A DNA stretch of 64,000 nucleotides from a virus, in IMG/VR virus record IMGVR_UViG_3300005690_000024, positions 32,001-96,000 of that record; one strand, given 5' to 3'. Positions 23,896 to 27,782 of this stretch are shown here, piece after piece; the first letter of the stretch is position 1, and each line of letters starts with the position of its first letter. The notes under the pieces are model-generated. The model saw nothing but the letters and a program-made list of their open reading frames with translations, ran no database searches and was not told where the DNA came from. The translations under genes were made by a program, and so were the position numbers.

Positions 23896-23951
23896 GATTG
23901 TGCGTATAGGCATTGACGGTGGGAGTGTGGTTGCTATTCTTCGAGGAGTGA

Positions 23952-24257
23952 TTGATGTCCAGGGCGAGCGAAGTTCTTCAGGCAGCGTTTGAATCCGATC
24001 CGAATGCGATGCATGCGTTGGTGGTGAATCGTTATCCGTGCAATCAGGCTTTGGCAGACGATCCGTTTGTGATTGTGGATGTACCACCAGTTCTTGGCGG
24101 GACTCACTTTCAGGTTGGGATGCTTGGCGTGTTGAACGGTGTTCTGGTCGCCAACGGTCTTCCGAAGGTGGCTGTGAAGTGGTCGAACGAGCGAGATGAA
24201 GACGGACAATGCATGGTTCTTGGTTTCTGCGACTACGTGGAACCATCGGCAGAGTAA
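23952..24257 (+). CDS. Hypothetical phage protein
   Basis: 101 aa, GAGGAG RBS, motif copy upstream. Confidence 0.6.
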   Translation: MMSRASEVLQAAFESDPNAMHALVVNRYPCNQALADDPFVIVDVPPVLGGTHFQVGMLGVLNGVLVANGLPKVAVKWSNERDEDGQCMVLGFCDYVEPSAE

Positions 24258-24283
24258 ACGTGGAATTCCGTTCCGCTGTTGCG

Positions 24284-24376
24284 GCGGAACGACTAAAATC
24301 AGCCGGTTTGCGGACGGTTGACTTCCAATTTCAAAGCAGCGTTGCCCGCAAACTCGGCTGCATTTTATTGTTATTT
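24284..24376. mobile_element. attC-type integron recombination site 1
   Basis: GAAC-gac-TAAAAT-CAGCCG-GTTTGCGG...CCGCAAAC-[T]-CGGCTG-[C]-ATTTTA-tt-GTTATTT: imperfect inverted repeat with AAC/GTT cores, an unpaired spacer and two extrahelical bases. Confidence 0.85.
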
Positions 24377-24388
24377 TGCGAGGGTGTA

Positions 24389-24589
24389 ATGGCAGACCCA
24401 AAACACAGCGATGAAATACACAAGAGAAAATTGATAGTTGTAAGGGCAATTCGCGATGGCTGCCCAGATTGCCCCGACGAAGGATTGATGTGCGAAAAGC
24501 ATTTGAGGGAGTTGAGGCCACTGTTCACGCGACCTAGGCAGCGGCTGAAAGCGTTTGAGGATCGGTTGTTTTCGGATCAGTCAAAATAA
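24389..24589 (+). CDS. Cassette ORF A (66 aa, CPDC...CEKH, possibly metal-binding)
   Basis: AGGGTG RBS just after attC1. The TAA stop is part of the AAATAAC core of attC2. Confidence 0.7.
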   Translation: MADPKHSDEIHKRKLIVVRAIRDGCPDCPDEGLMCEKHLRELRPLFTRPRQRLKAFEDRLFSDQSK

Positions 24590-24670
24590 CGCTCGCGATC
24601 AGCGGTGGCCGCGAGAGATTTTGTTAGCAGTGGAGACGTTGACGGCCTCCGCTGCATTGCGTGGTTATTT
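24584..24670. mobile_element. attC-type site 2
   Basis: AAATAAC-gct-CGCGAT-CAGCGG-tGGCCG...CGGCC-t-CCGCTG-[C]-ATTGCG-tg-GTTATTT. Confidence 0.88.
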
Positions 24671-24686
24671 TGCATTGGGGAATGCG

Positions 24687-24911
24687 ATGAAAATTGGACC
24701 AGTGAATTTTGGAAGCCTCAATGCGTGGCGGTACGCATGGAAGATGCGGGGATCGGTTCCGATGGTATACCTTCTGCGAAACAGCAAGGGTGTCATACCT
24801 GGGCGATGGGGCTTCGTCGTTCTCGGCTTTGAGTTCGGCTCTCGCAACTCAGATAGCAAGTTTGGACAGTGGTTGCACCGTGTTGGGCTGTGGCCGTTCA
24901 TGTCAAAATAA
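24687..24911 (+). CDS. Cassette ORF B (74 aa)
   Basis: ATG 17 nt after attC2. The TAA stop lies in the AAATAAC core of attC3. Confidence 0.7.
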   Translation: MKIGPVNFGSLNAWRYAWKMRGSVPMVYLLRNSKGVIPGRWGFVVLGFEFGSRNSDSKFGQWLHRVGLWPFMSK

Positions 24912-25008
24912 CGCTTGGCATAAGCCGGGCGAGTGTCGACGTGGTGTGAGTGTAATTTTCCCGCATGACGACAGAGGTTAACGCCTCGGCTTCATGCCAT
25001 TGTTAGTT
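24906..25008. mobile_element. attC-type site 3
   Basis: AAATAAC-gct-TGGCAT-AAGCCG-GGCG...CGCC-[T]-CGGCTT-[C]-ATGCCA-tt-GTTAGTT. Confidence 0.9.
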
Positions 25009-25021
25009 TGCGAGGGTGATC

Positions 25022-25249
25022 ATGAGCATTCAGTTGAACCGACATCAAGCGGAATTGTTGCTATCGTTTTTTGATAGCGGGGACTTCGATGACGTGGTTT
25101 TAGAGGTTGAGTTTCATGAGGTGGGACCACACGGGCCGGGGCTGTACTGTTGGCATGCTGAGTATCCGGAGGAAGGCAAGTCGTTTTTGCCATCCGTTAG
25201 CGAAGCCGTAAAGCAATGCGAAAAGATAGTTGCTGATACGTCAAACTAA
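25022..25249 (+). CDS. Cassette ORF C (75 aa, acidic)
   Basis: AGGGTG RBS after attC3. Ends in CAAAC-TAA-C, the exact complement of the GTTAGTTTG at the start of the cassette. Confidence 0.7.
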   Translation: MSIQLNRHQAELLLSFFDSGDFDDVVLEVEFHEVGPHGPGLYCWHAEYPEEGKSFLPSVSEAVKQCEKIVADTSN

Positions 25250-25459
25250 CTTGATGGATTACCGAGAAGCCCGAGAGAAGGCGATACAGACCGTTTTGCG
25301 GTTGGTGATCGAGTTACCGTCTCCATTGCGTTCGCTCTTGGATGCTTTGAGGGAGAGGCCACAATTGTTCGGACCGGATACTTGTGTGTCGAGTTCGAGT
25401 GGGAAGGAAAGCCCCGGCGAATCTACATAGCCGAGAGCGATATCGTTTCAGGTCCATAA
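25250..25459 (+). pseudogene. Start-less 3' fragment of an SH3/KOW-like ORF apparently interrupted by the cassette array
   Basis: 69 open codons (LDGLPR...FAVGDRVTVSI...SGP*) with no start codon. In frame with GTG 24260-24289 once 24290-25249 is removed. A competing ATG-25254 frame also exists. Confidence 0.5.
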
Positions 25460-26337: not shown

Positions 26338-26592
26338 AGTGTGGCCACACTTGAAGGTGGTTAAAATCAGGCCAGATAAGTCAGTTGCTGGTGTGTGTAG
26401 TTGCTGAAAACACGGGATTTTATGGGGTTGTTAGTTGTTGTTCTCGCTTTCGTAAAGCGTAGGTCATCGATTCGAATTCGATCGGCGGCTCTTTTTTGAG
26501 AGCCAAAAACACAAGGGAATCAGTGAAAACTGGTTCCCTTTTTTGTTGCGCTGTGTTTGGTAAACTACGCTTCCACACTTGTTCCCACACTT
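26337..26592. mobile_element. attP: core matching the 3' half of tRNA-Thr(CGT) at 26445-26491, plus arm-type repeats
   Basis: CGCT-TTCGTAA-AGCG anticodon arm, ATCGA-TTCGAAT-TCGAT T-arm, then CGGCGGCTC. CCACACTT at 26345, 26573 and 26585; perfect palindrome AAGTGTGGCCACACTT at 26337-26352. Directly upstream of the integrase. Confidence 0.8.
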
Positions 26593-26603
26593 GGAAGCGT
26601 GAA

Positions 26604-27782
26604 ATGGCAGACCGACCAGAGAAACCTTATCCAGACTTCCCGTTGTTTCCACATGCAAAGGGGTACTGGTGCAAGACGATCAAAGGGAAGCAGTGGGCGT
26701 TTGGTCCGTGGGCTGACCCTGATGCGGCGTTGCAGAAGTATCTGGACTGGCGAGACCAGATCATGGCGGGGAGAGACCCGCGTAAGCAGGCTGCTGAGAC
26801 CGCTGTGGGCGTCACGCTGAAGGAACTGTGTAATCTGTTCCTTGTCGCGAAGAAGGGCGCCATGGAGCGGGGAGAGCTTTCTGTGAGGTCATACGCTGAG
26901 TACAGGGGTGAAGCGAAGTGGCTGTGTGACTGCCTGGGGCGCGAGACAGGTGTGGCCACACTGATGCCAGCCGACTTTGCGAAGTTGCGGGCGAGCTATC
27001 CGAAGACGTGGGGCATTGTCACGGTGTGTGGGCACATCACGAAGACGAAGTCGATCTTTCGGTTTGGTTACGAGAATCGGATCATCGAGCGGGAGGTGTC
27101 GTTCGGGTCGGAGTTCGTGAAGCCGACACGGTCACAGTTTCGGAGGAACAGGCAGCAGGCTGAATCAGAGCGGGGGTTGCTGCTGTTCAGCCGGGAAGAG
27201 TTGCTGGTGATCATTGAGAAGGCGGAAGGGTGGCTGAAACCAGCGATCCTGTTGGGCATCCAGGCGGGGTTGGGAAATCGTGATGTCTCGGGGCTGACGG
27301 ACAGGCATGTTGACTTGGAAGGTCGGTGGGTTTCGTACTCGCGCCCGAAGACGGGGGTGTATCGGAGTTTTCCACTGTGGCGAGAGACGGTGGATGCGAT
27401 CGCGGCTTATCGGAAGACTCGGGTTGATGCGAAGCGGGTCGAGGATGGCGGGCTGTGCTTTCTGACTCGGCAGGGCTGTCCGTTGGTCACTGAGATGGTG
27501 CATGCAGACGGGCGGCATATTCAGGTGAACAATCCGACGTTGTCGTTTGCGAAGCTGTTGAAGCGGGAGGGGCTGAAGCGGGCTGACCTGAACTTCTATT
27601 CGCTTAGGAGGACGTTTGAGACGATAGCGGGGCAGTCGAAGGATCAGGTGGCGGTGGACCACATCATGGGTCATGCGGACGACAGCATGGGCGGGGTGTA
27701 TCGGCAGGGGATAGATCGTGAGAGATTGGAGGCAGTTGTACAGCATGTGCATCGGTGGCTATACGGTTCTGGTGAAATTTAG
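26604..27782 (+). CDS. int: Phage tyrosine integrase
   Basis: GLGNRDV (R), RPKTG (K), FYSLRRTF (YxxR in place of HxxR), MGHAD (H), GVY (Y). The N-terminal KPYPDFPLFPHA arm domain is of a type I associate with planctomycete integrases. Confidence 0.93.
   Translation: MADRPEKPYPDFPLFPHAKGYWCKTIKGKQWAFGPWADPDAALQKYLDWRDQIMAGRDPRKQAAETAVGVTLKELCNLFLVAKKGAMERGELSVRSYAEYRGEAKWLCDCLGRETGVATLMPADFAKLRASYPKTWGIVTVCGHITKTKSIFRFGYENRIIEREVSFGSEFVKPTRSQFRRNRQQAESERGLLLFSREELLVIIEKAEGWLKPAILLGIQAGLGNRDVSGLTDRHVDLEGRWVSYSRPKTGVYRSFPLWRETVDAIAAYRKTRVDAKRVEDGGLCFLTRQGCPLVTEMVHADGRHIQVNNPTLSFAKLLKREGLKRADLNFYSLRRTFETIAGQSKDQVAVDHIMGHADDSMGGVYRQGIDRERLEAVVQHVHRWLYGSGEI

Follow-up and report, generated by a model that had tools for sequence, protein, structure and literature searches.

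Phages have been found to carry 17 clusters of attC sites lacking an integron integrase (CALINs) and some complete integrons, and recombination of phage attC sites by IntI1 has been shown (Qi et al. 2023). In one of these phages, TJE1, the CALIN adjoins a hairpin with inverted GTTRRRY motifs (Qi et al. 2023). It has also been reported that IntI inserts cassettes efficiently at genomic GWT sites (attG), and small CALINs have been proposed to arise in this way (Loot et al., bioRxiv 10.1101/2022.09.11.507474). Here, we describe a locus of this kind in the window, the whole stretch of 64,000 nucleotides that was analysed, which comprises bases 32001-96000 of the linear IMG/VR virus record IMGVR_UViG_3300005690_000024 (120,507 b, estimated to be ~80% complete). 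Positions 24290-25249 of the window are best explained as a CALIN of three integron gene cassettes, carried by a phage of ~120 kb and inserted at one G|TT secondary site; we put the probability of this reading at about 0.85. Since phage CALINs and IntI insertion at GWT genome sites are already published, the array is a well-documented new example rather than an element of a new kind.

Between 24284 and 25250, the plus strand shows the order hairpin, open reading frame (ORF) A, hairpin, ORF B, hairpin, ORF C and a lone core, with AAC-to-AAC spacings of 300, 322 and 338 bp. The components of the array are as follows (R1 is the covariance model described below; RBS, ribosome-binding site).

24284-24376, plus strand: attC1 (bottom strand), 93 nt, recognized by R1 and by folding; part of cassette A from C24290 on.
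24290-24589, plus strand: cassette A, 300 bp, consisting of attC1, the RBS GAGGG and ORF A, and ending in CAAAATAA.
24389-24589, plus strand: ORF A, 66 aa, with a CxxC...CxxH motif; its TAA lies in the TAAC core 24587-24590.
24584-24670, plus strand: attC2 (bottom strand), 87 nt, recognized by R1 and by folding.
24590-24911, plus strand: cassette B, 322 bp, consisting of attC2, an RBS and ORF B, and ending in CAAAATAA.
24687-24911, plus strand: ORF B, 74 aa; its TAA lies in the TAAC core 24909-24912.
24906-25008, plus strand: attC3 (bottom strand), 103 nt, recognized by R1 and by folding; 5' core CAAAATAAC, 3' core GTTAGTTTG, one mismatch.
24912-25249, plus strand: cassette C, 338 bp, consisting of attC3, the RBS GAGGG and ORF C, and ending in CAAACTAA.
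25022-25249, plus strand: ORF C, 75 aa; its TAA lies in the TAAC core 25247-25250.
25241-25250, plus strand: lone core TCAAACTAA|C, with the right junction at 25249|25250; C25250 is that of the target.

A preliminary description of this DNA had claimed that three hairpins of 93, 87 and 103 nt share a common architecture, and this is indeed what the sequence contains. Read 5' to 3' on the plus strand, each hairpin consists of AAC, 3 nt, two helices of 6 bp, a further stem and a variable centre, followed on the returning arm by the stem, an extra T, 6 bp, an extra C, 6 bp, 2 nt and GTT. In all three, the extra C and the extra T both lie on the 3' arm of the plus strand. The two extra bases had been described in the same way, but in element 2, which reads AAC GCT CGCGAT CAGCGG ... 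CCGCTG C ATTGCG TG GTT, the T is opposite a T, and thus forms a mismatch instead of a bulge. The stems vary in sequence with the pairing kept (TAAAAT/ATTTTA, CGCGAT/ATTGCG and TGGCAT/ATGCCA). As also described, three ORFs of 66-75 aa alternate with the hairpins and have their stop codons inside TAAC cores, and the unit sizes of 300, 322 and 338 bp correspond both to the AAC-to-AAC distances and to the cassettes delimited at AA|C.

When folded as single-stranded DNA, each hairpin was more stable than all 200 of its shuffles on both strands (z from -3.3 to -4.2; -4.1 for attC1), and the stretch after ORF C and the last core formed no hairpin (z ~0). A scan of the whole 120,507-b record for the architecture returned only these three sites, all on the plus strand, and the same scan of five shuffled genomes gave 0, 0, 0, 1 and 0 hits, so that the pattern is not due to chance. 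The features of the elements are those of attC sites. Each is an imperfect AAC...GTT palindrome with an R box of 7-9 bp (AAC/GTT only in attC1, as expected of a chimeric end site), a spacer of 3/2 nt and two L-box helices of 6 bp; the extrahelical bases are on one arm, the proximal one being C where the canonical site has G; and the terminal structures are variable, with unrelated centres and total lengths of 93, 87 and 103 nt, against ~57-141 nt for attC sites. No match to the hairpins was found in Rfam. Similarly, no terminator-like site was found, and no sigma-70-like promoter was present at the ends of the array. A loose core pattern (CAAAMTAAC...GTTAKTTTG) gave chance matches only in the genome and viral collections, none of them with the architecture.

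It has been reported that attC models can be taxon-specific, Planctomycetes included (Ghaly et al. 2021). In the phylum of a Planctomyces metagenome-assembled genome (MAG), represented here by 401 genomes, IntI above the curated cut-off is present in 80. A scan of 490 kb of intI flanks for the architecture gave 31 hits versus 4 in shuffles, and the genuine hits share features that had not been selected for, namely, AAC-GCY, nnnnAT-CAGCGG, CCGCTG-C-ATnnnn, TT-GTT and the distal extra T. An alignment (A1) was made of 25 IntI-adjacent bacterial attC sites from Planctomycetota, and R1 was built from A1 alone. The proposed structure covaries in A1: 80.9% of the cells are paired, compared with 66.8% in shuffles and 27-43% in slid controls, and both sides change in 20 of the 25 pairs.

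R1 was run unfiltered over all 64 kb on both strands. Its top hits in the window were the three phage elements, at full length and on the plus strand only: attC2 at 24582-24672 (44.3 bits, E 1e-8), attC3 at 24904-25010 (43.7 bits, E 1.4e-8) and attC1 at 24282-24378 (36.1 bits, E 1e-6, with 11.1 bits on the minus strand). The fourth hit reached 11.3 bits, and a run over the whole record again returned the three sites only. R1 also recovered 35 further attC sites in IntI flanks at 27-67 bits, so that the scores of the phage elements are ordinary for true sites. An attC covariance-model search had been named in the preliminary description among the tests that could refute its reading; carried out with the home-made R1, it singled out exactly the three elements. 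Two other approaches were rejected, as searching generically by fold energy for AAC...GTT hairpins was of no use where genomes are GC-rich, and a regular expression for planctomycete attC sites missed most of them.

A query made of the 3' arm and core (GCTGCAT..GTTATTTTGC) gave 27 genome hits, 6 of them in Planctomycetota, and 3 more from viral contigs; a search of viral contigs with a 5'-arm pattern gave no match. Among the 3'-arm matches, R1 confirmed attC sites in a Fuerstiella MAG, a Planctomycetales MAG and the viral contig L344. The closest attC relatives are those of the Fuerstiella and Planctomycetales MAGs, both of which have IntI. In the Fuerstiella sp. MAG (G403), IntI is accompanied by more than 100 R1-type attC sites of ~95 nt spaced ~500 bp apart, and this chromosomal integron is very large and scattered over many small contigs (e.g., L351:892-17422 and L322:2515-3841). 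One Fuerstiella attC is identical to the 3' arm of phage attC1 over 28 of 28 nt and is also followed by a bottom-strand ORF. In the cassette after L322:3747-3841 of the same MAG, the bottom-strand ORF begins directly after GTTATTTTGCG, as in the phage. No R1-type sites were detected in an IntI-containing Alteromonas genome. On the other hand, a Rhodocyclaceae MAG (G408, an activated sludge betaproteobacterium) contains four R1-type hits of 32-43 bits across 250 kb (C2:761724-1015232); no IntI was found in this MAG, and the sites may be isolated cassettes resembling single attC sites lacking an integron integrase (SALINs). The attC type is thus taxon-biased, not exclusive.

The planctomycete loci also establish the polarity of the sites. 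In 60 of 60 bacterial R1 hits, the strand whose 3' arm has the extra bases is the one that reads toward intI. The orientation of intI itself varies, being divergent from the array in L282, L293 and L296 and toward the array in L286, L288-L291 and L300, and the polarity of attC relative to intI is constant across the loci L282-L300. This implies that the strand with the extra bases is the attC bottom strand, whose 5' AAC is cut as AA|C. For the phage sites, the bottom strand is therefore the plus strand, and the crossover points AA|C fall at 24289|24290, 24589|24590, 24911|24912 and 25249|25250. The cassettes delimited in this way each consist of an attC, an RBS and an ORF. Their starts, GTTATTTTG in A and B and GTTAGTTTG in C, are matched by their ends, CAAAATAAC in A and B and CAAACTAAC in C, with a G/C covariation between the start and the end of cassette C. 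All three units are thus bounded by crossover points and end in the complement of their own starts, as gene cassettes do. The preliminary description had already proposed such circles closed by one attC, and its proposal holds for A, B and C; the polarity is added by the present analysis.

Three peculiarities of the array follow from these junctions. The first core, GCGGAAC, stems from the target, which is why it is not complementary to the GTTATTT of attC1. The core that closes the last ORF, CAAACTAA|C, has no hairpin because its C belongs to the target. Finally, the R box mismatch of attC3 (CAAAATAAC versus GTTAGTTTG) is accounted for by the matching partner CAAACTAAC at the end of cassette C. 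A plain hairpin model leaves the foreign first core, the lone last core and the attC3 mismatch unexplained.

The cassettes do not have the usual polarity, in which the ORF is on the top strand with attC downstream, as all three phage ORFs are on the bottom strand. Among 43 bacterial cassettes of the phylum delimited by R1, 30 have their longest ORF clearly on the top strand and 3 clearly on the bottom strand. Since a minority of cassettes is known to be reversed, reversal does not exclude membership. With three attC sites within 730 bp and no match to the IntI family TIGR02249 in the window or in the whole 120.5-kb record, the array has the makeup of a CALIN; the earlier statement that the window lacks IntI is borne out and now extends to the record. 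It is not a complete integron with intI, attI and the cassette promoter Pc, as there is no IntI and the nearby recombinase is not IntI-like.

The insertion can be read from the flanks, whose features, together with the nearby integrase, are as follows.

24260-24289, plus strand: possible 5' part of a split small gene, GTG and 9 codons, continuing at 25250-25459.
24270-24290, plus strand: target-side hairpin GTTCCGC-TGTTGCG-GCGGAAC, seen in the sequence; its last AA|C is the left array junction 24289|24290.
25250-25459, plus strand: right flank, containing either ORF D (ATG 25254-25430, 58 aa) or, in the frame of 25250, the remaining 3' part of the split gene.
26496-27782, plus strand: phage tyrosine integrase (PF00589, phrog_1), outside the cassette system.

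On the minus strand, the target reads CAAG|TTCC and is a G|TT site, and the left junction lies inside the small hairpin GTTCCGC-loop-GCGGAAC. Removing 24290-25249 joins the flanks at 24289/25250 as GGCGGAA|CTTGATGG, the empty junction that would be expected, and yields one open frame, 24260-25459, in which GTG24260 and 9 codons are joined to the downstream frame. The frame that follows the TAA of ORF C (25247-25459) is that of ORF C itself; it is open for 69 codons and has no start codon. We consider the odds about even that a small gene was split by the insertion, with 25250-25459 as its stranded 3' part. The C-terminal part of the restored ORF is protein-like and resembles SH3-like proteins of 66-70 aa in the ESM Atlas at 0.92, and no sequence homologues of it were found. 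Codon usage does not separate the restored frame from ORF D. Among the neighbouring phage proteins, no relatives were found for the upstream 101-aa protein, the 327-aa protein has relatives at 37-47% only, which are not syntenic, and the downstream 101-aa piece has one non-syntenic relative.

A second phage lineage provides both the occupied and the empty state of such a site. The viral contig L344/L374 (IMGVR_UViG_3300032290_000948), which is unrelated to the present phage over the 6.9 kb examined, has a single cassette of 267 bp at L374:2209-2475. It is built as GCAAGAA|C, attC (36.4 bits with R1), an RBS and a 68-aa ORF ending in TCAAAATAA|C (GAG TCA AAA TAA|C); its attC has nearly the same arms as phage attC2, and its right junction has the same form as that of the phage array. 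This cassette sits in the 3' end of a conserved phage gene. In L375, both flanks are 99.6-99.8% identical to those of L344 and enclose the exact empty site GCAAGAACTTATCG; L376 is 99.9% identical downstream and ~88% upstream and has the same empty site, as do six more distant relatives at 60-81% protein identity. R1 matches the occupied contig only, and no attC-linked recombinase was found in the 14 kb examined at the occupied site. The same cassette type thus moves into phage DNA in a second lineage. The preliminary description had suggested that related phage contigs be compared for an empty site; such a precise site exists for the L344-type phage, but for the phage described here none was found, nor were any close relatives. 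Both independent phage targets read GAA|CTT, or AAG|TTC on the other strand (window 24286-24292 and 25247-25253, and the L374 junctions). This hints at a target preference beyond GTT, although with two events the case is anecdotal.

Based on these observations, a mechanism may be proposed in which the plus strand carries the attC bottom strand, which would fold and be cleaved by IntI after the second A of its 5' AAC. The cassettes would have entered the phage DNA by IntI recombination of the folded attC with a double-stranded G|TT site (attC x attG), either one cassette at a time or as one multi-cassette circle, and they may still be excisable. The integrase would have been supplied in trans by the host, during infection or lysogeny. 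A host IntI acting in trans seems the simplest source of recombination, as IntI is present in 80 of the 401 genomes of the phylum, the relatives of the phage integrase are planctomycete only and the phage has no IntI of its own. The bottom-strand ORFs, each with its own RBS, point along the neighbouring phage genes and are presumably read from a phage transcript. A copy of the motif GCGTATAGG lies at 23902-23920 (with the GCGTATAG motif at 23902), ~50 nt ahead of the ORF 23952-24257. The cassette ORFs may be read from a transcript starting at the 23902 motif.

The recombinase at 26496-27782 deserves separate consideration, as the cassettes could have been moved by this phage-encoded enzyme instead of a host IntI. 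Relative to the attC polarity, its gene has the side and the orientation expected of an intI; the strand hit by R1 reads toward this gene, and the distance of 1.25 kb is comparable to bacterial intI-to-last-attC distances. However, the protein matches PF00589 and the phrog_1 phage integrases and has no match to TIGR02249 or any other NCBIfam family, and four small ORFs separate its gene from the array. In addition, a search of ~186,000 species genomes across GTDB gave only three relatives, at 39-43% identity, in Pirellulales, Thermoguttaceae and Planctomycetota MAGs, and none of these has an attC nearby. The attC type of the phage is that found beside true IntI genes, and, as noted above, the occupied L344 site lacks an attC-linked recombinase. 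Movement by the phage's own recombinase is therefore improbable in our judgement. From its sequence and relatives, we read 26496-27782 as the integrase of the phage itself and as a clue to the host, which is probably a member of the Planctomycetota.

Somewhat less probable still is that the phage picked up part of an integron array of the host chromosome through illegitimate or homologous recombination, as in the imprecise excision of a prophage. Such routes have been favoured for some phage CALINs (Qi et al. 2023), and the present phage is temperate by gene content, given its integrase. On the other hand, the array begins and ends precisely at AA|C cores and consists of whole cassettes only, and removal of the segment leaves a continuous flank and an open frame; in L344, the same cassette type was inserted precisely from core to core. 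Moreover, the array lies 1.25 kb from the integrase gene within co-oriented phage genes rather than at the end of a prophage.

Conserved RNase III hairpins occur between genes of phage T7, and the present hairpins, which can also fold as RNA, likewise lie between co-oriented small genes, overlapping the upstream stop and ending ~12-16 nt before the next start codon. Nevertheless, phage RNA signals that are attC-like by chance (RNase III sites, mRNA stabilizers or attenuators between early genes) are a very improbable explanation, as there are only three such hairpins in 120 kb, with no Rfam match and no terminator-like site; a model trained on bacterial DNA sites flanking IntI genes detects them in a strand-specific manner; neither the foreign first core nor the lone core behind ORF C can be explained at the RNA level; and in another phage, the unit of attC, RBS and ORF is present or absent as a block cut at AAC.

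With cassette insertion by an integron integrase as the preferred reading, the cargo can be considered. A Shine-Dalgarno sequence of its own precedes each ORF, lying between the 3' core and the start codon, and the stop codon takes up the final triplet of the cassette. For ORF A, 13 weak relatives were found, the best at 47% identity (E 1.6e-12). ORF C has a relative at 84% (P0002), which also ends in DTSN, and weak PHROG hits (E ~5e-6). ORF B belongs to a conserved family (alignments A2/A6) of widespread small proteins with the motif MKIGP...VIPGRWGF.LG.EFGSRN...GLWPW and has a relative at 92% (P0003), which likewise ends in MSK; the family was found at L304:10001-10204, L313:7429-7554 and 13 other metagenome loci. 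Relatives at 43-62% lack the terminal MSK, the residues encoded by the core, and are thus three residues shorter than the cassette copy. At L304 and L313, the two long loci that were examined, the ORF B relatives are located in phage replication modules that also encode helicases, a DnaB-like helicase, a replication initiator and a methyltransferase. At none of the loci named does an attC adjoin the gene, and R1 found none beside ORF B relatives in 16 loci outside the present phage. Since all three ORFs have a family or relatives and the antisense frames have none, the bottom-strand ORFs are real genes. The cargo proteins gave no match in Pfam, PADLOC or NCBIfam, and an AlphaFold model of ORF B (mean pLDDT 58.7) was too poor for a fold search. 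The GC content of the array is 50.7% versus 52.8% for the genome, at the 12th percentile, and the codon scores are -0.04 per codon for ORF A and 0.14 and 0.20 for the others versus 0.37 +/- 0.13 for phage genes; both fit a foreign or accessory origin.

Several points weigh against reading the array as a CALIN acquired from a host integron. The proximal extra base is C and not the canonical G, although most planctomycete IntI-adjacent attC sites have C too. R1 is home-made, and its training sites were preselected with an architecture filter derived from the phage elements themselves. The R1-type sites in the Rhodocyclaceae MAG mean that the attC type does not fix the host phylum. No close relative was available in which 24289/25250 could be seen unoccupied; the source sample, a bioreactor sludge, is the only public run with this DNA, its contigs show neither joints nor variants, and no recombination of the array was observed. 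Finally, the search for the same cassettes in Planctomycetota that the preliminary description had called for was unsuccessful, as ORFs A and C were not found in the 401 genomes of the phylum. The wider ORF B family, for its part, occupies phage replication modules that lack attC, and these searches thus revealed no bacterial integron that could have donated these particular cassettes.

The array is a clean natural example of cassettes entering phage DNA site-specifically at a plain GTT site. The occupied and empty sites in near-identical genomes support phages as carriers of cassettes between bacteria, and they also support the route from attC to a genome site as an origin of small attC clusters. 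Two features go beyond the published cases: the cassettes are reversed, so that each gene can bring its own translation signal into a phage transcript, and at least one cargo gene comes from a family that is otherwise ordinary in phage replication modules. The reversed polarity and the phage-family cargo are hints that the integron system is put to use by phages for accessory genes of their own. A wider proposal, which we regard as possible but doubtful, is that a pool of backwards cassettes is common to the phages of Planctomycetota, and possibly to those of other phyla, and is exchanged via the host integron integrase, each cassette being built of an attC bottom strand, its own RBS and a small phage-type accessory gene ending in the core. 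If this were true, the integron machinery would be an exchange system not for bacterial genes alone but also for phage accessory genes, among them perhaps anti-defence genes, and the ORF B family would represent the same gene as an ordinary phage gene and as a cassette, which bears on how cassettes are made.

In comparison with known systems, the phage sites are close to those of the sedentary chromosomal integrons of Planctomycetota (L282-L300, Fuerstiella), with which they share the R box, the 3/2-nt spacer, the order of 6 bp, extra C, 6 bp and extra T, a variable centre of up to ~95 nt and R1 scores in the same range. They differ in that the phage array has neither IntI nor attI and its ORFs are reversed, and the R box is AT-rich in the phage (CAAAATAAC/GTTATTTTG) versus GC-rich in the chromosomal integrons (GCCTAAC/GTTAGGC). 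The attC of aadA7 and the Vibrio cholerae repeat (VCR), canonical sites of mobile integrons, are like the phage sites in having AAC...GTT and, on the 3' arm of the strand that recombines, a pair of extrahelical bases separated by 6 bp; they are unlike them in the proximal extrahelical base, which is G where the phage has C, and the centre of aadA7 is shorter.

The array resembles the published phage CALINs in its location in a phage genome, with at least two attC sites, small ORFs and no IntI, and the hairpin at the left junction recalls TJE1, where a hairpin with inverted GTTRRRY-like motifs lies beside the CALIN (Qi et al. 2023). In contrast to these CALINs, the present array probably has its host among the Planctomycetota, carries every ORF on the attC bottom strand, can be read as a single precise G|TT insertion, has cargo that belongs partly to phage gene families, and is known from sequence alone. 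Similarly, it shares with attC x attG insertions, SALINs and small CALINs the position of cassettes outside attI and the G|TT junctions; as in those insertions, the target gene may be disrupted, and expression depends on the surrounding transcription (Loot et al.). The CRGM motif of IntI1 hotspots is not seen in the phage targets, which have CCGC here and GCCT in L344. Unlike the described attC x attG insertions (Loot et al.), the target here is phage DNA and not a bacterial chromosome, and three cassettes are present at one site.

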